Counted from the first letter of the stretch, positions 4,118 to 24,000 are shown. The stretch: DNA of 24,000 bases from Rhodoferax sp. (GCA_030682475.1 JAUXOA010000101.1:10202-34201), one strand, 5' to 3'. The notes: generated by a model from the letters alone, not told the origin. Program-made: numbers and translations.

Positions 4118-4188
4118 CCGTCGACACCCTGTTGGGGTTGTCATCCCGGACTCGATCCGGGATCTATAGATCCCGGCTTTCGCCGGGA
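4118..4188. repeat. REP-like compound palindrome, copy A
   Basis: CCGTCGAC...TTGGGGTTGTCA, then TCCCGGA-ctcga-TCCGGGA (4144-4162), the 16-bp perfect palindrome GGGATCTATAGATCCC (4159-4174), and TCCCGGC-tttc-GCCGGGA (4171-4188). The core TTGGGGT(T)GTCATCCCGGACTCGATCC recurs at 6664-6689. Confidence 0.7.
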
Positions 4189-5044: not shown

Positions 5045-6664
5045 TAGCTCCACCTGGCGACGCCGGGTGTCGATGATGGACGCCTCGATGTGGTCCGCAG
5101 CTACCGTGCCCACACGTCCCTGGCGCAAAAGTTCCTGGGCCGCCTTGAGGCGATTCAGCGCCGCAGCGTAGTCCAGCCGTGCCACTTGTGTTTCGGCGTC
5201 GGCGCGTATGGCACGCAGGGTCTGACCTTGCGCCGCATACGCACTGGACAGCAGTTGCCAGGCCTGGGCATCACGCGGATGCGCGGCGACCCAGTCTTGC
5301 AGGCGCGGCGCGGCTTCTCCGGCCGCTGCGCCCTGGCCCGTTTGCGTGGCGACCTGTGCCCCCAACAACAACTCGGGACGACGCACCAGCGAAGCATCCA
5401 CGCCGACATCACTTCGCCCCGCCGGGTTCGTATTCAACGCCGCCGCTGCGCGCTGCGCATCGCCCGCAGCCAACGCTATTTCAGCCACCAGCAAACGGGA
5501 TAAACGCGCCGCGCGCGCGTCAGAGCGCACCAGTACGATCAAGCGCTCCAGGTAGGCTTTCGCATTGGCAAAATCACGCAGTCGGCTGGCGGCCAAGGCG
5601 GCGCCATACAACACCGCCGCCTGCCGGGGCGCAGCCAATGTGGCCAGATTGCCGCCACCCGCCTCCACCAGCAAAGCCCGCAGAGCATCCACGCCCGGGT
5701 TGGAGAGCACGCGGGCGCGGGCAGACACCATGGCATGTTCAACCGTGGGGGCCGCGTTGACCGGGCCTGGCGTGGCCAGTGACTGGCGCGACTGCATATC
5801 AGCAATCCGCTCGGTGGTGAGCGGGTGGCTGCGCAGATAGGGGTAGGCGCCGTTGTCATTGAACCTGGAGGCCTGCTGCAGCTTGTCAAACATCGACACA
5901 AAACCCTGCGCGTCAAAACCGGCCTGGGTCATGACAGCAAAACCCACGCGGTCGGCTTCGCGCTCCATGTCACGGGAAAAATTGAGCTGATTCTGGGCCG
6001 TGATGGCCTGCCCGCCCACGATCAGGGCGTTAGCTGCATCGACATTCTTGCTGGCGGCCAGCGCACCCAGAATCATGGCACCGATCAACCAGGGCGCTTG
6101 TTGACCCTGTTTGGCAATAAGACGCGAAATATGCCGTTGCGTGACATGGCTGAGCTCATGCCCCAGCACCGAGGCCAGTTCGTCCCGGTTGCTGACGATG
6201 GCGATCAGGCCCAGATGGACGCCAAGGTAACCGCCCGGCAGGGCAAAGGCGTTCACGGTGCGGTCACGCCCGAGCATGATCTCCCAGGCAAAACGCTCAT
6301 CGAGCTCAGGTGACAAATCACCCCGCACGCGTGCGGCCGCCAGCAAGGGCTGCCAGATGCCTTGCACATATTCAACCAGCACCGGATCGTCAATATAGTC
6401 CGGGTCACGGTAGATTTCGTGGGCAATGCGATCCCCCAGGCGCCGCTCAGCGCTGCTGCCCATATCGCTGCCGTCGCCCAGCGTGGGCAACTGCGTGGCT
6501 GGCGGCTTGCTTGGGGGAGCGCTGGATTGGGCCTGTAACGGGATCGGACTGGTCACGCCAAGAGCTACTAAAATAATAGCTAATACCACCTTATTGACAG
6601 GGGCTATGGTCCGATTTGATTTAAAAATAGTGCTCAAAATGAATACCGTCGACGTTAATTCCAT
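5015..6664 (-). CDS. M48 family zinc metalloprotease with C-terminal TPR-like region (BepA/YfgC-like)
   Basis: HELSHVTQRH zinc motif (HExxH), a downstream EREADRVG motif, and an Ala/Leu-rich helical-repeat C-terminus. The start is set at the ATG at 6664 (MELTSTVFILSTIFKSNRTIAPVNKVVLAIILVALGVTSPIPLQAQS, signal-peptide-like). The listed start at 7003 would run antisense through moaC. The start is uncertain; the GTG at ~6589 (VVLAIIL) is an alternative. Confidence 0.82.
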   Translation of the reverse strand: MELTSTVFILSTIFKSNRTIAPVNKVVLAIILVALGVTSPIPLQAQSSAPPSKPPATQLPTLGDGSDMGSSAERRLGDRIAHEIYRDPDYIDDPVLVEYVQGIWQPLLAAARVRGDLSPELDERFAWEIMLGRDRTVNAFALPGGYLGVHLGLIAIVSNRDELASVLGHELSHVTQRHISRLIAKQGQQAPWLIGAMILGALAASKNVDAANALIVGGQAITAQNQLNFSRDMEREADRVGFAVMTQAGFDAQGFVSMFDKLQQASRFNDNGAYPYLRSHPLTTERIADMQSRQSLATPGPVNAAPTVEHAMVSARARVLSNPGVDALRALLVEAGGGNLATLAAPRQAAVLYGAALAASRLRDFANAKAYLERLIVLVRSDARAARLSRLLVAEIALAAGDAQRAAAALNTNPAGRSDVGVDASLVRRPELLLGAQVATQTGQGAAAGEAAPRLQDWVAAHPRDAQAWQLLSSAYAAQGQTLRAIRADAETQVARLDYAAALNRLKAAQELLRQGRVGTVAADHIEASIIDTRRRQVELLLREQSLDR

Positions 6665-6703
6665 TGGGGTGTCATCCCGGACTCGATCCCGGCCGTCGCC
6701 GGG
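6646..6703. repeat. REP-like compound palindrome, copy B (15-nt shorter variant)
   Basis: CCGTCGAC (6646-6653), then TTGGGGTGTCATCCCGGACTCGATCC (6664-6689), then CCCGGC-cgtc-GCCGGG (6688-6703). It equals copy A minus the central GGGATCTATAGATCC segment. It overlaps the first codon of, and the sequence just upstream of, the M48 protease gene. Confidence 0.65.
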
Positions 6704-6803
6704 CGTACATCCAATACGACACCATCGTATGATGCGCGGCTGATCTGAACGTTCTGTAAATTTGGCACCGGCCAACGATTTTTCAACTGTAACGAATTTT
6801 CCA

Positions 6804-7292
6804 ATGAGCTCCCTCACCCATTTTGACGCCCAGGGCCAGGCCCACATGGTGGACGTGGCGGCCAAGGCCAGCACGCACCGCATTGGCGTGGCTGGCGGCC
6901 GCATTGAAATGCAGCCCGCCACGCTGGCCATCATCGAAGCCGGTAGCGTCAAAAAAGGCGATGTGCTGGGCATTGCCCGCATCGCCGGCATCATGGCGGC
7001 CAAGAAAACCAGCGACCTGATTCCCTTGTGTCACCCGCTCGCGCTGACCCGTGTTGCTGTTGATTTTGTAACTACTCACGCAAACGCTACAGGGGCTGGC
7101 AGCATATTTTGCACTGCAACGGTCGAAACTGTCGGCCCCACTGGTGTCGAGATGGAAGCACTGACCGCGGTGCAGGTAGCGCTGCTCACCATTTATGACA
7201 TGTGCAAGGCGGTGGATCGGGGCATGATCATCACTGGCGTCAAGTTGCTGGAAAAGCATGGCGGCAAATCGGGCAGTTTTGTGGCCCGGTAA
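6804..7292 (+). CDS. moaC: Cyclic pyranopterin monophosphate synthase MoaC
   Basis: 162 aa from the ATG at 6804 ([18 protein letters not shown]...). It contains [28 protein letters not shown] and [26 protein letters not shown], diagnostic MoaC blocks. Confidence 0.92.
7099..7292 (+). repeat. Direct repeat copy 1 (3' end of the intact moaC)
   Basis: 194 bp, collinear with 9597-9790 at a constant offset of 2498 bp with no indels. I counted 7 mismatches. Confidence 0.9.
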
Positions 7293-7315
7293 GCGCCCCC
7301 AACATCACGTCTTTT

Positions 7316-8854
7316 TCACATTTTTCTTTGCGCGTTTTTATTTGCCCAGCGCGCATGACTCTCGGGAAATGCCGCCCGGTAGCGCATCAGATAGAACAGC
7401 GCCTCGTCCTCAAATCCGAGCAACACGGCGCTCTCGATCAGTTTTTCGATCACGCGCGGTTCCGGTGAAAAGTGCAGCATGGCCGTGGCCAGGCCCCTGA
7501 TATGGGCCGCATTGTCAGTCGTCAACCGCGTGGTGCTGAGCTCGGCAAAGCGCACCTGATTCTGAAACAGCCACGAGTCGCTAACCTTCTCCAAAGTATT
7601 GTCGCGATAAGCCTCTGAACGCATTTTGGGAATCAGGTAGAGCTGGCTGATGCGGTGGTAGTCCCAGGCGACGTAGGCGACAATTGCTATTAACAGCATA
7701 GCTACTCCAGAAAGAATGACAGGCGCTGAAGGTCGATTTCCCTGCCTATTCAAAGCTGGCGTCGGCACCGTAACGCCCGAGCGTGTCGCCCACAACAAAC
7801 CGATACACAGACCCAAGGCCATCTGGAACGGCCCGTACCATAACGGGTATTCCAGCATGCTGTGCAGCGCAATGACAGCCAACACCACCCACGCCATCTG
7901 GCGACTTGCGCCCGCCTCACGCCAGGGCTTGGTCCGCCACACCAGCCACAGCCCGCCGCCGCAAACAGCCAAGGCCACCGGCACGCCCAACTCCACCGCC
8001 AAATGCAGCGGCAGGTTATGTGCATTGTCCAGAATTTCGCAAAAACGTGGGCCGGGGTACAGCGTGATGAAATGGACGTAATCCAGCTCGCCCCAGCCCC
8101 AGCCAAGCCAGGGCTTCTGGGCGATCAGGTGCAGTACGTTAGCCCACAAGGTCAGGCGACTGGCGCACGCCGGGCCGGCATCATGCAATCGCGCCAAAAT
8201 GCCCGTGACATTGGGGTCAAGACCCGCCAAAACTGGCAAGGCGAATGCAGCGATACAGTAAGCCAGCGCCGTCGCCATAAGAACTCGCCGCATAGCAGGC
8301 TGGCGCCAGCCCCACATCAAGGCCATGGCCATCAAGATCACCAGTTGCACCAGCCCGGTTCGCGAAGACGCCGCCGCATTACCCATTGCCAAGACAACCG
8401 CCGCCGCCACAGGAACCGCAGCCAGGCAGTTCAGCGGATATGAACGCGATGTGTCACCAGGCAAAGCGGACTTGGATGGGTTCTGCGCAACCCACCACAG
8501 CAAGGCCGCCAGGCCGATATTGGTCAGCGTTGCAAACTGGTTGCGTTGACGCAGGTTGGCGAAGGCCTCGCCCACAGCGCTGCTGTTGACCCAGGGCCCC
8601 AACACGGCAGTCGCTCCAGAATACTGCAACAAGCCCAGCAGTGAACTGAGCAACGCGGCGACCAGCCAGGCCGATGCCATGGCGCGCACCAGGCGCCCTG
8701 CCAAAAACCGGCTTGACTCACCACGGCACGTCCCCAGCAAAGCTGCAGCGCAAGCCCACGAGAACAACAAGGGCACGACAGCAGGCGTTGGCCCCGGGGA
8801 AAACGGATTAAGCCAGGGCAGTGTTATGAAAAAGAAGGCGGCAATGGACAGCAT
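7316..8854 (-). CDS. PglL/O-antigen-ligase family O-oligosaccharyltransferase (Wzy_C core plus C-terminal Wzy_C_2-type domain)
   Basis: Polytopic membrane protein. The N-terminus MLSIAAFFFITLPWLNPFSPGPTP is the PglL-type motif. It has the ligase motif ILDNAHNLPLHLAVELG and a soluble C-terminus (...LFQNQVRFAELST...PEPRVIEKLIESAVLLG...). The start is set at the ATG at 8854; the listed start at 8944 adds 30 aa of low-complexity sequence. Confidence 0.72.
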   Translation of the reverse strand: MLSIAAFFFITLPWLNPFSPGPTPAVVPLLFSWACAAALLGTCRGESSRFLAGRLVRAMASAWLVAALLSSLLGLLQYSGATAVLGPWVNSSAVGEAFANLRQRNQFATLTNIGLAALLWWVAQNPSKSALPGDTSRSYPLNCLAAVPVAAAVVLAMGNAAASSRTGLVQLVILMAMALMWGWRQPAMRRVLMATALAYCIAAFALPVLAGLDPNVTGILARLHDAGPACASRLTLWANVLHLIAQKPWLGWGWGELDYVHFITLYPGPRFCEILDNAHNLPLHLAVELGVPVALAVCGGGLWLVWRTKPWREAGASRQMAWVVLAVIALHSMLEYPLWYGPFQMALGLCIGLLWATRSGVTVPTPALNRQGNRPSAPVILSGVAMLLIAIVAYVAWDYHRISQLYLIPKMRSEAYRDNTLEKVSDSWLFQNQVRFAELSTTRLTTDNAAHIRGLATAMLHFSPEPRVIEKLIESAVLLGFEDEALFYLMRYRAAFPESHARWANKNAQRKM

Positions 8855-9153
8855 AACTGTGAGGCAATTGGGGTAGCACTGGAATCCGACCCCAATTACA
8901 CAACCAAAACCGGTGCCGAAGCCGGCAGCACCAAACTGGGGCAACGCATTTCCCTGGCGGATGATTTGTACCGGTATGACACGCCGGGCGTACTGTGGCC
9001 GCGCATCATCGTGGCCAAAAGCGGCTACAGCCTGGCCGCCGACAAGCTGAGCGGCAGCTTTGATGCGGACAAGTGATTCGCGTCGTCGGAAAAAGTGAGT
9101 GTGGGCCAGCCAGGCGAGGTGATGTTTGGCCGACTGCTTGCCAAGCTCGTGCT

Positions 9154-9603
9154 TCAGCGCGTCAGGGCCATGAACAACTTTGGCAGTTGCTCGGGCAGGC
9201 GCTCGATGTGATCGATCACGGTGTACTGGTGGCCGAATATGTCGCTCACATAGTTGTCGGCCTTGGGGTCCAGATTGATGCAGTAGGTGAAGATGCCTTT
9301 TTGATCAGGCTCCTTGACCGATTGACGCGCGTCTTCGATCAGCAGGCGTTCGTCATGCGCGTCCACGTCGGACGGTTGTCCGCCGGTCAGGATCAGCATC
9401 AGTTTCTTGTCGGCTTTCTGGGCTTCAAGGTAGTGCGCGTCGTCGCGCGTATTGGAGTAAAAACCGGCAATCGCAAACGGGTTGCCCAGTTGTTCAATCG
9501 ACCAGGCCAGCAGAGACACCGCTTCCTGGCTGAGATGCAGAATGGTCTGGTCCGAGCCGGCGGCTTTTTCATTGAGCGACTCCGACAGGTCCAGCAGCAG
9601 CAT
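9154..9603 (-). pseudogene. 5'-truncated VWA-domain gene of the CbbO/NorD type (C-terminal ~147 codons only)
   Basis: It reads [13 protein letters not shown]... (DxSxS MIDAS motif at the very start), ...LMLILTGGQPSDVD..., and ends ...ERLPEQLPKLFMALTR, the C-terminal pattern I associate with NorD/CbbO. Full-length members are several-fold longer. Upstream of 9597 the frame continues only as antisense moaC sequence. Confidence 0.6.
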
Positions 9604-9790
9604 ATTTTGCACTGCAACGGTCGAAACCGTCGGCCCCACTGGTGTCGAGATGGAAGCACTGACCGCGGTGCAGGTAGCGCTGCTCACCATTTATGACATG
9701 TGCAAGGCGGTGGATCGGGGCATGACCATCACTGGCGTCAAGTTGCTGGAAAAGCACGGCGGTAAGTCGGGTAGTTTTGTGGCCCGCTAA
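9597..9790 (+). pseudogene. moaC 3' fragment (direct repeat copy 2, 64 codons plus stop, no 5' part)
   Basis: It encodes [63 protein letters not shown], matching moaC residues from 7099 onward with one I-to-T change. The listed ORF 9482..9790 has an unrelated N-terminal part that is antisense to the VWA fragment. Confidence 0.88.
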
Positions 9791-9814
9791 GGACGATACC
9801 GTTGGGGGGCAAGG

Positions 9815-10732
9815 TCAGTCGGCTGGACCGGCCGGTGGCGGACGATGCGCGAACAACCAGGTCTTGAAGGCGGCGGCGACGGCTGAGAGCTTCTTGCCCT
9901 TGGGATAGACCACCTGCCAGTGGCGGATCAAGGGGAAACCCTGCACATTCAGCAGCACCAGTTCCTTGAGCGCCAGCTCGGCCACCACGGTGGTGCTTGA
10001 GAGCACCGCCAGCCCCAAGCCACCGGCCACGGTTTGCTTGATGGCCTCGTTGCTGCCAACTTCCAGCCGATTTTTAAGCGTGATACCGTGCGCTGCAAAA
10101 AACCGCTCGGTCGTTAGCCGCGTGCCGGACCCCGGCTCGCGCAGAATAAAGGGCTCGTTCGCCAGGCGCTGTGGCGCCACATTGCGCTGCCCGACCAGCG
10201 GGTGCGTGGGCGGGGCCACCAGCACCAGCGGATTTTCTGCAAAATCCTCACTCACCACGTCCATCTGCTGCGGCGGCTGACCCATAATGTAGAGGTCGTC
10301 CTGGTTGCTGGCCAGGCGCTGCAGCAGGCTTTCCCGGTTGCCTACAAAGAGTGACACCTCGATGCCCGGATGCGCCGCACAAAACCCGCCCAGCAGTTTT
10401 GGCACCGTGTATTTCACCGTGGTCAGGATGGCGATCTTGAGGCTGCCTTTGTTGACACCACGCAGGGCGGCCAGGTCTTGCGACAGGCGCTCCATGCGGT
10501 TCTCGATGTCCTGGCAGGCATCGGCCAGCGTGCGCCCGGCAGCGGTCAGAAAAATCTTCTTGCCCAGTTGTTCAAACAGCGCCTCGCCCACGGTTTCAGA
10601 CAGTTGCTTGACCTGCAGCGACAGGGTGGGCGGCGACAGATGCAACTCCTCGGCGGCGCGGGCAAAGCTGCTGTGGCGGGTAACCGCCAGAAAGATGCGC
10701 AATTGGTGCAGCGTGGCGTGACGCAGATGCAT
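9815..10732 (-). CDS. cbbR: LysR-family transcriptional regulator CbbR (divergent from cbbL)
   Basis: 305 aa. The N-terminal wHTH is TLHQLRIFLAVTRHSSFARAAEELHLSPPTLSLQVKQLSE, followed by a LysR substrate-binding domain. It is divergently arranged 183 bp from cbbL, the canonical cbbR position. Confidence 0.85.
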   Translation of the reverse strand: MHLRHATLHQLRIFLAVTRHSSFARAAEELHLSPPTLSLQVKQLSETVGEALFEQLGKKIFLTAAGRTLADACQDIENRMERLSQDLAALRGVNKGSLKIAILTTVKYTVPKLLGGFCAAHPGIEVSLFVGNRESLLQRLASNQDDLYIMGQPPQQMDVVSEDFAENPLVLVAPPTHPLVGQRNVAPQRLANEPFILREPGSGTRLTTERFFAAHGITLKNRLEVGSNEAIKQTVAGGLGLAVLSSTTVVAELALKELVLLNVQGFPLIRHWQVVYPKGKKLSAVAAAFKTWLFAHRPPPAGPAD

Positions 10733-10758
10733 AGGGATTTAAATGATTTATAAAAATC

Positions 10759-10771
10759 TACCGTAACGGTA
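10759..10771. promoter_or_regulatory. Candidate LysR (CbbR) recognition site, T-N11-A dyad
   Basis: TACCGTAACGGTA is a perfect 13-bp palindrome that fits T-N11-A. It sits in the AT-rich cbbR-cbbL control region, and a second dyad TAAATgATTTA lies at 10740-10750. Confidence 0.4.
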
Positions 10772-10894
10772 AGAACATTTTACTTTTATTTATCTTCTGA
10801 CGGGACAACAATCCGCACCAGTTCAGAGCAAAGCCACCCCAAGTTGGCGCGCTTTGAGCCCCAAAGTGATGATTCTTGCCGGAACACCCCCTAA

Positions 10895-12385
<1,491 letters not shown>

Positions 12386-12406
12386 TTCATACAAGGAGAA
12401 ACAATC

Positions 12407-12841
12407 ATGATGACTAATCCTTCGCATATCGTCACGCAAGGGCAGTTTTCTTTTCTGCCCCCATTGACCGATGTGCAGATCACTGCACAAGTCAAATATG
12501 CACTGGGCAAGGGCTGGGCGTTGGGTATTGAATACACCGACGATCCGCACCCACGCAACACCTATTGGGAAATGTTCGGCAATCCGATGTTTGACCTGAA
12601 AGATCCCGCCGGAATTTTGGTGGAGATTAACAACTGCCGTAAGACATTCCCGAATCACTACATCCGTGTCACCGCATTCAGCGCGATACGCGGGGTAGAG
12701 AGCGTGACCATGTCCTACATTGTCAACCGTCCCAAGAATGAGCCAGGCTTTGGTCTGGTGCGTCAAGAAACGGATGGCCGTACCATGCGCTACACCATCC
12801 ATTCTTACGCCACCGACAAGCCTGAAGGCGAGCGGTATTGA
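12407..12841 (+). CDS. cbbS: RuBisCO small subunit, red-type (with C-terminal extension)
   Basis: 144 aa. TQGQFSFLPPLTDVQI is the red-type N-terminus, YWEMFGNPMFD is present, and the long C-terminus is typical of red-type small subunits. A GGAG SD lies 8 nt upstream. Confidence 0.93.
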   Translation: MMTNPSHIVTQGQFSFLPPLTDVQITAQVKYALGKGWALGIEYTDDPHPRNTYWEMFGNPMFDLKDPAGILVEINNCRKTFPNHYIRVTAFSAIRGVESVTMSYIVNRPKNEPGFGLVRQETDGRTMRYTIHSYATDKPEGERY

Positions 12842-12884
12842 TTGAGCGCATTGCTTTAAAAGCAGCGTTGTAAAAACGTAGTGC

Positions 12885-12919
12885 AAATGGCGGGCGCAAT
12901 AAACGCCCGCCATTTTTTT
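12885..12919 (+). terminator. Rho-independent terminator/attenuator between cbbS and cbbX
   Basis: ATGGCGGGCG (12887-12896), loop CAATAAA, CGCCCGCCAT (12904-12913), a perfect 10-bp GC-rich stem that runs into T7 (12913-12919). Confidence 0.8.
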
Positions 12920-12954
12920 CAACAACCCATTTTAAACACCATCGGGAATTTCCC

Positions 12955-13908
12955 ATGAGCGAAACAGATCCACTGAATGCCATATTGGCGGACGACGCGT
13001 CGGTCAATCTGGAAGCCGAATTTGAAGCCTCCAACGTCAAAGACGTACTCGACAAGCTCGACCGCGAACTGATCGGCTTAAAGCCGGTAAAAACCCGCAT
13101 CCGCGAAATCGCGGCACTGCTGTTGGTGGACAGGCTGCGCAAACAATTCGCGCTTACATCCGCCACCCCCACCCTGCACATGAATTTTACCGGCAACCCC
13201 GGTACCGGCAAGACCACTGTGGCCATGCGCATGGCCGAAATTTTGCATCGCCTGGGCTATGTGCGCGAAGGCCATCTGGTTTCCGTCACCCGCGACGATC
13301 TGGTCGGTCAGTACATCGGCCACACCGCGCCTAAAACCAAAGAAGTCATCAAAAAAGCCATGGGCGGCGTGCTGTTCATAGACGAAGCCTATTATCTGTA
13401 CAAGCCGGAAAACGAACGCGACTACGGCGCGGAATCCATCGAAATTCTGTTACAGGTGATGGAAAATAACCGCGACGATTTGGTGGTGATCCTGGCCGGT
13501 TACAAAGACCGCATGGACAAATTTTTTCATAGCAACCCCGGCATGCGCTCGCGCGTTGCGCACCACATTGATTTTCCAGACTACAGCGCCGAAGAATTGT
13601 TGCATATCGCCAAGCTCATGCTGGCAAGACAAAATTATCGCTTTAGCGCCGATGCCGAAAAAGCCTTTTTTAAATACATTTCGATACGCATGACGCTGGA
13701 ACATTTTGCTAACGCGCGCTCGGTACGTAACGCACTGGATCGTGCCCGCCTGCGCCAGGCCAATCGCCTGTTTGCTAACGCGAGTAAATCACTGAGCAAA
13801 ACCGACCTGATGACGCTGGAAGCGGAAGATATTTTAGCCAGCCGTGTGTTCCTGGAAGGCAAGCTGGACATGGACGGCGATGAAGGCAGTGACGGGGTAG
13901 TTGATTAA
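12955..13908 (+). CDS. cbbX: Red-type RuBisCO activase CbbX (AAA+ ATPase)
   Basis: 317 aa. Walker A is [11 protein letters not shown] and Walker B is VLFIDEAY, followed by the CbbX-like [31 protein letters not shown] block. It lies downstream of red-type cbbLS. Confidence 0.92.
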
Positions 13909-13978
13909 GTTGCTTCAGGCCACAGGGGAAAACAAAACGACGCGCGTTCCTTATTTTTCCTATGCGGGAGAAAGGGAT

Positions 13979-14134
13979 ATGCTGGACGACTGGGCTATAA
14001 AAAAAGGGGGGGAGGAATTGCCAAATTATTGGGAAGAAAAAACCCAATTGAGCATAGACAAAATTCCAACCCATATCATCAAAAAAATGTTCAATCGTGA
14101 AAAATATCTAATCATGGAAGAGCAAAATACATGA
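13979..14134 (+). CDS. Hypothetical small protein (51 aa; the alternative TTG start at 13901 gives 77 aa)
   Basis: The ATG at 13979 is preceded by GGGAG (13966-13970) at 8-nt spacing. The stop TGA at 14132-14134 overlaps the next ATG (ATGA). The product is Lys/Glu-rich with no motif I recognise. The region is very AT-rich, so coding status is uncertain. Confidence 0.35.
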   Translation: MLDDWAIKKGGEELPNYWEEKTQLSIDKIPTHIIKKMFNREKYLIMEEQNT

Positions 14135-14454
14135 CACTCAACGACCTTTATCGCGAGATGCGCGTAGCGCTGGAAGGGTCTGTCGATGCCGCAGCTATTG
14201 ACCGATTGACAACCGAGGCCAATCGGTTCGCCAGTACGGTAGGCTGGGCTGAAGGCGTGATTGACAAAGATGGGCGAATCGCCGAAGCCTTCGACGGCCT
14301 TAGAGAAATGGCCCAAGCCCGTTTTGAGCAAACCCGCGACAGCAACAGTGCTACTCTGCACGATGCGCTGGCTGGTCTTGTCCTCGCCATACGCACCCAT
14401 GACGAAGATATTGATCCGTCACCCGACAACGACGATCAGAACCACGACACCTGA
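14131..14454 (+). CDS. Hypothetical acidic protein (107 aa)
   Basis: ATGA start/stop overlap with the upstream ORF, and GGAAGAG lies ~9 nt upstream. The sequence looks helical/amphipathic with an acidic tail (DEDIDPSPDNDDQNHDT). No motif recognised. Competing ORFs on other frames look less protein-like. Confidence 0.5.
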   Translation: MTLNDLYREMRVALEGSVDAAAIDRLTTEANRFASTVGWAEGVIDKDGRIAEAFDGLREMAQARFEQTRDSNSATLHDALAGLVLAIRTHDEDIDPSPDNDDQNHDT

Positions 14455-14596
14455 CAGCGTCAACGCTAAACAGAAATGTCCGCTATCCCCTGTTTCCCGC
14501 TTATTGCTGAGTAATGTCCTTTCCATCGTGGGGCTGGGACCCTGAACTCGGCGATGACGACTGACCAGATTGAGTCGGCACCGCGTGCCGTGCTCT

Positions 14597-15508
14597 TCAA
14601 GCCCAAGAGTTGATCAAAGGGCCGCCCTGCTCAGTCAGGAAGGCTTTGAACGAGGTGGCGGCGGGCGAGAGCTTTTTCTGCCTCAAGTGGGTGATGTACC
14701 AATTGCCCAACAGCGGCATACCTTCGATGTCCAGCAGGGCGATGTGGCCGCTGGCCAGTTCGTGGCGCACGGTGCGCATCGACAAAAAGCTCAGGCCCAT
14801 GCCGGCCATCACCGCTTGCTTGATGGTCTCATTGCTGGGCATGGGCATCACCACTTTTAACGGCGTCTGGTGTTCGGAAAACAGCCTCTCCATCGCCGCG
14901 CGGGTGCCCGAGCCCTCTTCGCGCACCACAAAACCGTAGTCAACCAGGGCTGAAAATGGCAGGTGTTTGCGTCGTACCAGGGCATGGCCGGGCGCCGCCA
15001 CGAACGCCTGCGGGTTGGTGGCAAAGGGAGTGGCTTCGCAGTCCAGGTTGGCGGGCGCGCGGCCCATCACCACCAGGTCGGCCTCGTTGCGCGCCAGCAG
15101 ACCCAGAATATTTTCGCGGTTGTCGATCTTCAACTGAATGTCGATGCCCGGAAAGTGTTGCCCAAAGCGCACCAGCAGCATGGGGATAAAATATTTGGCG
15201 GTGCTGACCACGGCCAGGTCGATGCGGCCCCTTTTCAGGCCGACATGCTCGGCCATCTGGGATTCCAGGTCTTTGAACTGGCCCATGGCGGCAATCGCGT
15301 GGGTCAAAAATGTCTCGCCCGCGTGGGTGAGCTGGATGTTGCGACCCAGGGGCTCGATCAGCGGCAAGCCAAACGCATCTTCGAGCTGACGGATTTGCAT
15401 GGACACGGCGGGTTGGGTCACAAACAGCCGCTCTGCCGCCTTGGACACCGAGCGCTGGCGCGCCACTTCGATGAAGGTCTGAATTTGTTTCAGGGTGTAG
15501 GGGCGCAT
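14597..15508 (-). CDS. LysR-family transcriptional regulator, second CbbR-like copy (divergent from cbbY-cbbK operon)
   Basis: 303 aa. The wHTH is TLKQIQTFIEVARQRSVSKAAERLFVTQPAVSMQIRQLED, followed by a LysR effector domain. It is divergent, 141 bp from cbbY. Confidence 0.85.
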   Translation of the reverse strand: MRPYTLKQIQTFIEVARQRSVSKAAERLFVTQPAVSMQIRQLEDAFGLPLIEPLGRNIQLTHAGETFLTHAIAAMGQFKDLESQMAEHVGLKRGRIDLAVVSTAKYFIPMLLVRFGQHFPGIDIQLKIDNRENILGLLARNEADLVVMGRAPANLDCEATPFATNPQAFVAAPGHALVRRKHLPFSALVDYGFVVREEGSGTRAAMERLFSEHQTPLKVVMPMPSNETIKQAVMAGMGLSFLSMRTVRHELASGHIALLDIEGMPLLGNWYITHLRQKKLSPAATSFKAFLTEQGGPLINSWA

Positions 15509-17165: not shown

Positions 17166-17218
17166 TTGTGGGACAGACCGCAGTTACGCGAAGCGAACAA
17201 GCTCTGTCCCCAACTGAT
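17166..17218 (+). repeat. Intercistronic palindromic element, full copy 1 (cbbE-cbbF spacer)
   Basis: TTGtGGGACAGA (17166-17177) pairs with TCTGTCCC-CAA (17203-17213). The inner hairpin is GTT-a-CGC-GAA-GCG-AAC (17183-17198). The element ends 16 nt before the cbbF ATG. Confidence 0.85.
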
Positions 17219-18334: not shown

Positions 18335-18491
18335 TTGTGGGACATCCTGAAAGCTTGCGGGACAGACCGTATTCTGAGATTTTGCGGGACAGACCGCAGT
18401 TACGCGAAGCGAACAAGCTCTGTCCTCAACTATTCAAGGCGAGCCAGATCTGTCCTAAACCGTTCAAGGGCCAGCCCTGTCCCCAACTGAT
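18335..18491 (+). repeat. Cluster of the same element in the cbbF-cbbP spacer: three 5' arms, one inner hairpin, three 3' arms
   Basis: The 5' arms GGGACA(GA) are at 18339, 18359 and 18386. The full copy spans 18382-18434 with the inner hairpin at 18403-18411. The 3' arms (T)CTGTCC(T/C) are at 18419, 18449 and 18477. All are in the same orientation. Confidence 0.85.
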
Positions 18492-19395: not shown

Positions 19396-19601
19396 TCCTG
19401 AAATATTGTGGGACAGACCGCAGTTACACGAAGTGAACAAGCTCTGTCCCCAACTGATCGTCAGATGCTGGATGTTCGCCAGCTCCGTCCCCAACTTGAA
19501 ACGGGATGTTGGTTGTCTGCCAGCTCTGTCCCCAACACTCCTGAAACTTTGTGGGACAGACCGCAGCTACACGCAGTGAGCCAGCTCTGTCCCCAACTAA
19601 T
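19396..19601 (+). repeat. Cluster of the same element in the cbbP-cbbT spacer: two full copies flanking two extra 3'-arm units
   Basis: The full copies are 19406-19458 and 19549-19601. The 3' arms are at 19443, 19484, 19525 (41-bp phasing) and 19586. TCCTGAAA-NN-TTGTGGGACAGACCG leaders are at 19396 and 19539. Confidence 0.85.

Positions 19602-22368: not shown

Positions 22369-24000
<1,632 letters not shown>

Follow-up and report, generated by a model that had tools for sequence, protein, structure and literature searches.

How the 3' end of one gene came to be present twice beside a set of CO2-fixation genes is the question raised by a stretch of 24,000 nucleotides from Rhodoferax sp. (GCA_030682475.1 JAUXOA010000101.1:10202-34201), which we call the window. 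The gene is moaC; its end occurs once in place, as the last part of the intact gene (copy A, 7099..7292, plus strand), and once more at a spacing of 2498 bp, as a detached fragment on the same strand (copy B, 9597..9790) that adjoins a cluster of cbb genes. An earlier note on this DNA had taken the two copies for orthologous moaC ends from different lineages and the 2.3 kb between them for a foreign insert. We find that the DNA between the copies is largely what relatives would lead one to expect next to moaC, and that the foreign hallmarks lie on the other side of copy B. The reading we prefer, to which we give about an even chance, is that cbb DNA may once have entered by an insertion at moaC, of which copy B, after a later rearrangement, would be the relic.

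The repeat itself is unambiguous. Positions 7099-7292 and 9597-9790 align collinearly and without gaps, are identical at 187 of 194 positions, and share a longest identical run of 97 bp. The seven mismatches between copy A and copy B are located at 7130, 7228, 7259, 7265, 7268, 7274 and 7289; six are synonymous third-position changes, and the remaining one replaces ATC (Ile) with ACC (Thr). The alignment and the number and kind of mismatches agree with the earlier note, as does the sharp loss of homology after both stop codons and upstream of 9597, apart from a single matching base past each stop, with which a repeat search reports 195 nt at 96%. Because the next-longest two-copy repeat in the window measures only 46 nt at 76% identity, the match between the copies is not due to chance. 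A third copy or fragment of moaC, which would mark the far end of an element, was sought across the whole window, and none was found.

The duplication left its target intact. The moaC gene (6804..7292, plus strand) encodes 162 aa from an ATG at 6804, with an alternative TTG start at 6762; its product covers the full PF01967 MoaC profile (E = 5e-55) and is 87% identical to the protein of Ca. Rhodoferax bjergmarkensis moaC. Copy A is the native 3' end of this gene, from codon 99 to the stop. Copy B covers only positions 77-136 of the same profile, and the open reading frame (ORF) that runs over it (9482-9790) fuses 38 unrelated residues to the last 64 residues of MoaC. We see no sign of any function in copy B, which, as far as its sequence tells, is best treated as a pseudogene scar, a dead and non-functional moaC end.

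The differences between the copies are distributed unevenly. In the first 129 bp (9597..9725 in copy B) the two are identical at 128 of 129 positions, while in the last 65 bp (9726..9790), which run up to the stop codon, they are identical at 59 of 65. As an outside reference we used the related locus L094 (loci from relatives carry L numbers), which matches copy A at 122/129 and 61/65 positions of these two parts and copy B at 123/129 and 59/65. Over the last 34 bp, copy A agrees with L094 at 33 positions and with copy B at 29. In other words, the copies look like near-twins in the first 129 bp and over the last 65 bp appear to differ as much as two species do; there, copy A is slightly closer to L094. 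The clustering (one difference in 129 bp, six in 65 bp) gives a Fisher p of 0.006 at a boundary that we chose after seeing the data, and the probability of at least six differences in 65 bp, where 0.76 are expected, is about 1e-4. At the one replaced residue both Ile and Thr are common in orthologues, and all seven differences appear compatible with a working MoaC. The 80 MoaC loci from other genomes did not serve to polarise the seven, since synonymous sites are saturated at identities of at most 84%; L094 and L091 were of partial help.

The right edge of copy B adds to this pattern. Homology ends at the stop codon plus one base, and unrelated DNA follows. A random breakpoint would seldom fall at a stop codon, and an intact gene that had acquired a new downstream neighbour would give exactly such an edge. 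The 24-bp spacer that follows (9791..9814) has no clear homology to the native spacer downstream of moaC or to the DNA downstream of other cbbR genes, and its exact sequence matched none of the metagenome contigs searched. We also considered that it might be the native spacer in inverted orientation; the two have CCCCCAAC and a few more bases in common, which is too weak to use.

From these observations we infer that another lineage furnished the gene end that makes up the last 65 bp of copy B. What survives in copy B would then be the 3' portion of an attL-type (left attachment site) junction, in which the cell's own gene is followed by a shared core, by a foreign but still coding end, and by foreign DNA. 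The first 129 bp would derive from the moaC of this lineage, and the last 65 bp, ending exactly at the stop codon, would have been supplied by incoming DNA that also comprised the spacer, cbbR and possibly the rubisco cassette cbbLSX, through an integrase-type insertion. The earlier claim of two orthologous ends thus survives in part: the differences are of the kind seen between functional genes, but only the last 65 bp show between-species divergence. Much the same holds for the claim that one copy had arrived with foreign DNA, in that a part of copy B seems to come from another, once-functional moaC lineage and lies beside foreign DNA, while the first 129 bp are self-like.

The left edge of copy B is of a different kind. 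Here the moaC sequence meets a remnant of cbbO, and the two share 7 bp, GCAGCAT (9597..9603): homology to cbbO of the Polaromonas locus L081 extends to 9603, and homology to moaC begins at 9597. Both parents contain the heptamer, cbbO of L081 reading ...CAGCAGCAGCAT followed by GACGG, and moaC reading ...GGCTG, GCAGCAT, ATTTTG. Such an edge bears the signature of illegitimate, microhomology-mediated joining. The novel junction connects a sequence from farther right (cbbO) to one from farther left (moaC codon 99), and its topology, to judge from the order of the parts, is that of a tandem duplication or of the insertion of a circle by a single crossover (Campbell-type), not that of a deletion; only 194 bp, rather than a whole unit, are present twice. 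We also considered GCAGCAT as the overlap of a site-specific crossover at a secondary attachment site in cbbO and rejected the idea as unsupported. In a reading by eye the flanks match at 1 of 10 positions on each side, and the differing positions at which other moaC inserts begin weaken it as well.

The same junction bears on two further explanations. In the first, the event took place in situ and involved no foreign DNA: during a deletion between cbbO and cbbR, a microhomology-mediated template switch copied 194 bp of the moaC end as filler, and the copies then diverged. Such an event would be in keeping with the 7-bp microhomology, with the short distance of 2.3 kb to the template, and with first 129 bp that are nearly identical. 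However, copying would have to have ended precisely at the stop codon, the 24 bp beyond it are not found beside copy A, and the differences should be spread evenly over all codon positions, whereas six of the seven are synonymous (the probability of at least six under neutral drift of copy B after a duplication in place is about 0.02) and six of the seven lie in the last 65 bp. We regard a template switch as very unlikely.

The second possibility is an artefact: in a metagenome-assembled genome the contig might be chimeric, or two strains might have been collapsed into one consensus. The source is apparently an uncultured Rhodoferax sp. represented only by protein records in nr, the 97-bp identical stretch could have confused an assembler, and mixing in the consensus could have inflated the identity of the first 129 bp. 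Yet the junction between cbbO and moaC shares just 7 bases, far below any assembler k-mer, so that a repeat-induced misjoin could not have produced it; moreover, the two copies lie on one contig with distinct flanks, and the cbbO fragment is independently annotated in the public record as a 149-aa ORF. An assembly error of this kind is scarcely credible to us.

The larger part of the DNA between the copies turns out to be native. Beyond copy A, a spacer of 23 bp (7293..7315) separates the converging stop codons of moaC and pglL (7316..8854, minus strand), a gene for a PglL/Wzy_C O-oligosaccharyltransferase (PF11846, PF04932, PF15864; Wzy_C, Wzy_C_2, PglL_A) whose start codon is uncertain and whose product is annotated publicly in a 454-aa version. 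The 80 loci mentioned above came from a scan for MoaC in one genome per species. Among them the order holin-M48-moaC is conserved in Comamonadaceae, and a pglL homologue on the opposite strand follows moaC in L002, L004, L005, L006, L010, L015 and L022. The closest PglL relatives in the protein collection agree: in L094 (PglL 73% identical) 23 bp separate pglL from an intact, convergent moaC; in L091/L092 (PglL 69% identical) a moaC fragment lies 22 bp after pglL; and both L094 and L091 have between moaC and pglL a spacer homologous to the one 3' of copy A. From 6461 to 8869 the window aligns with L094 at 81-85% nucleotide identity, across moaC and pglL and with no break. The GC content at third codon positions (GC3) of pglL is 0.71, like that of moaC and of the M48 peptidase gene. 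To the left of the repeat lie housekeeping genes, in which we include purB, yaeQ, and those for a holin-like membrane protein and the M48 peptidase, together with moaC itself.

Because the convergent moaC-pglL arrangement with its homologous 22-23-bp spacer is conserved in relatives, and because the GC3 of pglL is host-like, we take this gene to be native; the comparison shows copy A, its spacer and pglL to be the ancestral arrangement. The view of 7293-9596 as a foreign insert that had brought PglL therefore did not hold, since the order of genes downstream of moaC in relatives speaks against a 2.3-kb insert. What lies between the repeats is a conserved neighbour of moaC and two pseudogene fragments rather than an accessory element.

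A version of the insert idea nevertheless deserves weighing. The bracketed 2.3 kb, comprising the end of copy A, pglL and the pieces of ylqF and cbbO, might have come into a genome in which moaC was directly followed by cbbR, either as a 2498-bp circle by Campbell-type insertion or by one-sided homologous capture joined at GCAGCAT. The topology is exactly that of a Campbell insertion, the length of the repeat would equal the shared homology, and the 33 of 34 matches between the last bases of copy A and the pglL-linked L094 (29 of 34 with copy B) are compatible with arrival alongside pglL. Against this, the adjacency of moaC and pglL and their spacer are ancestral across the family, so that a loss of pglL from the recipient and its later return to the ancestral position would both have to be assumed; pglL, moaC and the M48 gene share their GC3, and there is no break in divergence from L094 across moaC and pglL. 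In addition, an earlier genome with moaC joined directly to cbbR is still required, and this is just the attL-type state of the explanation we prefer. We consider it unlikely.

The surroundings of pglL in relatives differ from those in the window. To the right of pglL, L002, L015, L040 and L094 carry type IV pilin genes, further glycosylation genes, or a pilB-like T2SSE ATPase gene. No pilin gene adjoins pglL in the window, so its native pilin partner would have been displaced or lost.

The rest of the DNA between the copies is debris. The earlier note had rightly described the bracketed segment as holding a PglL-type gene and a truncated VWA gene, and had missed a fragment of ylqF. The latter (ylqF/rbgA; 8903..9040, plus strand) is an internal piece of a gene for a ribosome-biogenesis GTPase, 138 bp or 46 codons long, with 86% nucleotide and 85% protein identity to residues 26-71 of a gene in L082; this parent gene matches TIGR03596 YlqF (NCBIfam). 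The VWA fragment (9154..9603, minus strand) consists of the last 149 codons of cbbO, the gene for the VWA adaptor protein in the CbbQO rubisco activase. NorD-family structures match it with their C-terminal VWA domain (residues 454-636/638). The fragment shows 85-90% nucleotide identity to L081 in two blocks and a gap, and is 56% identical to the C-terminus of an 835-aa gene that follows cbbM-cbbQ in L095. L081 is itself 70% identical to the latter, and the terminal motif ...RLPExLPKLFMALTR is common to all three. Because both the homology and the end motif match the gene downstream of cbbM-cbbQ in L095, we identify the VWA remnant as CbbO.

The decay of this cbbO copy is extensive. About 650 N-terminal codons are gone, an in-frame internal deletion near 9428-9438 has removed about 39 more, and TDG has become TGG; a full-length CbbO has about 760-840 aa and an intact metal-binding VWA domain, and here 149 codons remain. 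The remnant has no above-threshold match in Pfam or NCBIfam, and nr lists it as a hypothetical protein of 149 aa from Rhodoferax sp., with an ATG that falls within the microhomology. In L082, cbbO and ylqF are convergent, with 7.3 kb of sulfur-metabolism genes between them. The pieces in the window retain this orientation at a distance of 113 bp, so that the window would hold the collapsed remains of such a region. The best explanation of the ylqF and cbbO pieces appears to be that they are decaying remains of an older, green-type (CbbQO-served) rubisco neighbourhood, now beside a red-type (CbbX-served) cluster. Both the short "MoaC-like" ORF and the 149-aa cbbO remnant are, in our reading, best treated as pseudogene scars.

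An insertion at the end of moaC would not be an isolated case. In L020, a gene for a tyrosine integrase (PF00589, Int_N) is located 43 bp past the moaC stop together with a PriCT-2/AAA_25 primase-helicase gene, and a second moaC fragment lies about 5 kb downstream. The repeat in L020 starts at the equivalent of position 7170 in the window, has a near-identical core at 7170-7226, and diverges from about 7224-7227; six of the seven differences in the window are at 7228 or beyond, where the L020 pair also begins to diverge. Besides this integrase-bearing element, further inserts occupy the same target in other relatives. L005 (4632-5364) has a vapBC-like pair (VapC, TIGR00028) between perfect 58-bp repeats of the moaC end, the displaced repeat adjoining pglL. 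L091/L092 have a large island with genes for a DEAD-box helicase, a YqaJ exonuclease, a Sak-type annealing protein and DUF932, followed by a piece of moaC, about 175 bp long and annotated as an ORF of 46 aa, which adjoins pglL. L040 has a GT41 glycosyltransferase gene between moaC and a moaC fragment, and L019 an integrase remnant after moaC. In the canonical cases the displaced fragment adjoins the native downstream DNA, and the intact moaC carries the end supplied by the insert. Taken together, these loci show the 3' end of moaC as what looks to be a recurrent insertion site in relatives. Genes of PIN/VapC toxin-antitoxin type stand directly downstream of moaC in two relatives, L005 and L001; the latter, the closest MoaC relative, has a PIN toxin gene after moaC (11007-11432), and pglL is absent from it.

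The candidate incoming DNA lies to the right of copy B. The cbbR module (9814..10788, minus strand) consists of a LysR regulator gene (9815-10732; NF045990 CbbR and the Pfam LysR domains) and a 56-bp operator region. Its nucleotide identity is 91.2% to L083-L086 and 89-90% to L087-L090, in all of which cbbR faces an operon for form IA rubisco and the alpha-carboxysome (cso). Beyond cbbR, these contexts contain either a decayed cbbQ and genes for a DUF3363 relaxase-like protein, RPA, ParA, DUF2840 and HTH_17, or insertion sequence (IS) transposase genes; from its domains, we read the former set as genes typical of conjugative elements (integrative and conjugative elements, ICE). In every context the homology of cbbR is lost at its stop codon or no more than a dozen bases from it. 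The decayed second cbbQ of L083 (11063-11674), directly after cbbR, encodes 203 aa with the Walker A sequence GCGTLRF, is 80% identical to the operon's own cbbQ, and is another scar on the 3' side of cbbR. A more distant cbbR in L095 (86% identical at the protein level) faces a form II cbbM-cbbQ-cbbO operon, so that the same type of regulator appears paired with three forms of rubisco. Whether cbbR, cbbQ and cbbO were an ancestral unit was considered with mixed results: L083 has its decayed cbbQ after cbbR, but in L095 cbbO lies on the other side of cbbR.

These contexts bear on a further rival, in which copy B would derive wholly from the moaC of a donor. It would have been carried in with cbb DNA by homology-facilitated illegitimate recombination, with the right anchor in the cbb genes and a left join in cbbO at GCAGCAT that removed the 5' part of this gene together with cbbQ; later, copy A would have overwritten about the first 129 bp by gene conversion. 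The microhomology junction is there, recipient DNA is missing, and the decayed cbbQ after the closest relative of cbbR means that cbbR and cbbO could once have formed one unit; repeats of 194 bp at 2.3 kb would be substrates for conversion, and the pattern of divergence fits. On the other hand, a donor with moaC joined directly to cbbR is required and none was found, the additional conversion tract would have to end just where other moaC inserts start to diverge, and another close cbbR context has cbbO on the opposite side of cbbR. This too we judge unlikely.

The remainder of the cbb side looks like a mosaic of modules, of which at least cbbR and cbbLSX seem to have been acquired. The genes cbbL-cbbS-cbbX (10916..13908, plus strand) encode a red-type form IC rubisco and the CbbX activase (cbbX: TIGR02880, 535 bits). 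GC3 is 0.63-0.66 in cbbLSX and the stretch that follows, 0.70-0.81 in the native genes, and 0.76-0.86 in the rest of the cbb genes. This suggests that the red-type rubisco cassette is a module apart from, and younger than, the second LysR gene (lysR2) and cbbYEFPTZG. The stretch after cbbX (13909-14596, about 690 bp, 51% GC) has small ORFs only, with no family match among them, and is followed by the second LysR gene, cbbY, cbbE, cbbF, cbbP, cbbT, cbbZ and cbbG; the right end of the cluster lies past base 24000. We note that overall GC content from 10789 to 14596 (cbbL, cbbS, cbbX and the 690 bp) is 51-55%, below both flanks, and that the two LysR genes (9815-10732 and 14597-15508) are each divergent from a sub-operon of their own, cbbLSX and cbbY to cbbG, respectively.

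To return to the preferred history, an insertion at moaC followed or preceded by rearrangement, a second event would be needed besides the insertion itself. In this event, later or earlier, a copy of moaC would have been cut at codon 99 and joined to the middle of cbbO by RecA-independent illegitimate recombination via GCAGCAT, which would have left the copies at their present spacing. Several orders of events can be envisaged: a 2.5-kb tandem duplication may have come first and the insertion then gone into the spare moaC end; the insertion at moaC may have preceded a large duplication, one copy being excised afterwards; or a conspecific donor already carrying such an insert may have supplied the DNA by one-sided homologous capture. 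All three would give the same picture inside the window, which therefore offers no choice among them.

A number of observations weigh against an insertion relic. An integrative element usually carries its integrase inside, beside one attachment end, and among the ORFs of the window there is no integrase or transposase gene; nor is an excisionase or a second attachment site visible in it. As the earlier note had said, the window also holds no tRNA attachment site, its only tRNA gene being a tRNA-Ala (CGC) at 773-848 on the minus strand, far from the repeat. The left boundaries of moaC repeats vary, lying at 7099 here and at about 7117, 7158, 7170 and 7229 in relatives, and there is no known element with exactly this architecture. 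In none of the 80 relatives do cbb genes occur within 10 kb downstream of moaC, and no close relative (more than 95% nucleotide identity) that might show the donor or the empty site was found. GC3 from lysR2 to cbbG is host-like, so the cbb cluster as a whole need not be recent. The boundary of the clustering test, as stated, was not set in advance, and clustering tests based on an outgroup were only marginal (p = 0.07-0.17). Finally, gene conversion between the copies is a serious alternative source of the contrast between 128/129 and 59/65, with six of seven changes synonymous, and would need no attL. Wider searches gave no further pointer: look-ups of the exact PglL, CbbR and MoaC proteins of the window returned no record, a 43-mer common to copy A, copy B and L094 had no match in a metagenome scan, viral contigs scanned for the end of copy B, for a degenerate core pattern and for MoaC gave nothing, and a plasmid search returned only generic cbb genes at identities of at most 80%.

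There is a more specific proposal, which we hold to be rather doubtful: that the cbb cluster, or at least the cbbR-cbbLSX cassette, travelled on an integrative element whose target is the 3' end of moaC and which brings a moaC end of its own, and that copy B is the attL of this element in a spare, duplicated moaC end that served as a harmless landing pad. If this were true, an attachment site not described before would let autotrophy genes move among Rhodoferax-like bacteria by site-specific insertion.

Two families of small repeats were observed elsewhere in the window. Hairpin repeats of about 41-63 nt (GGGACAGACCGCAG...GCTCTGTCCC) are found at 17170-17210, 18386-18426, 19410-19450 and 19553-19593, with partial copies near 18341-18369, 19478-19500 and 19519-19541. 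They sit in the gaps cbbE/cbbF, cbbF/cbbP and cbbP/cbbT and resemble intergenic elements of the REP (repetitive extragenic palindromic) type; none was found elsewhere in the window or in about 94 related loci. A 27-nt repeat with 93% identity and a small palindrome, CCCGGA...TCCGGG, occupies the non-coding gaps after yaeQ (4135-4161) and just upstream of the divergent starts of the M48 gene and moaC (6666-6692).

Measured against known processes, the left junction of copy B is a standard microhomology join. It resembles the joins of tandem duplications, Campbell insertions and homology-facilitated illegitimate recombination in that a distal sequence is joined to a proximal one, 7 bp are present in both parents, and both genes are truncated; it differs in that only 194 bp of the unit that should have been duplicated are present twice. 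Homology-facilitated illegitimate recombination has been described for the transformation of Acinetobacter and Streptococcus. The term itself occurs in PMC6382021.

Closer to the insertion that we envisage are genomic islands and integrative elements that enter the end of a conserved gene and keep it working by replacing what they displace. GIsul2, for example, inserts at guaA. Entry at the 3' end, with a replacement end brought along, is known from islands of the SGI1 type at trmE (PMC8409611) and from GIsul2 (PMC9376610), and dusA-targeting islands are their 5'-end counterpart (PMC4482086). The window shares with 3'-end islands a direct repeat of the target's 3' end, an intact target, and a site that in relatives holds an integrase-bearing element and other inserts; a near-identical part followed by a diverged but still coding end is present too, in a form that gene conversion could equally have produced. 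It differs from them in that no integrase is visible and the repeats enclose a native neighbour gene and pseudogene debris; the second copy lies on the far side of pglL and does not adjoin that gene, and its left edge is the microhomology junction with cbbO instead of an arm of an element. Because the window has no integrase and the DNA between the repeats is native, we do not file the structure as such an island; it is probably only the relic of one. In the literature searched we found no report that names moaC as an attachment site, and its recurrent use in Comamonadaceae, where the moaC end appears to be a landing site for inserted DNA, may be a small new observation of a known kind. If confirmed, it would add moaC to trmE, guaA and dusA and would help annotators to see short "MoaC-like" and "VWA" ORFs as scars, not genes. 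The locus is an informative but ordinary scar of genome plasticity, and it reveals no new mechanism or system.

The third comparison is with mosaic and mobile cbb and carboxysome loci, known from atypical carboxysome loci (PMC9164163) and from the CbbQO activases (PMC8718961). The differences lie in the rubisco that is served: here it is a red-type form IC enzyme with CbbX, there are no carboxysome genes, and CbbO is a pseudogene of 149 codons. The likeness lies in a cbbR that is 91% identical to one facing a form IA carboxysome operon by ICE or IS genes, and in a CbbO remnant beside a rubisco cluster. A freshwater bacterium of the Rhodoferax type would have put its CO2-fixation locus together piecewise: its regulator is one that mobile carboxysome loci have as well, its red-type rubisco genes form a low-GC cassette, and beside them lies what is left of an older neighbourhood served by CbbQO.

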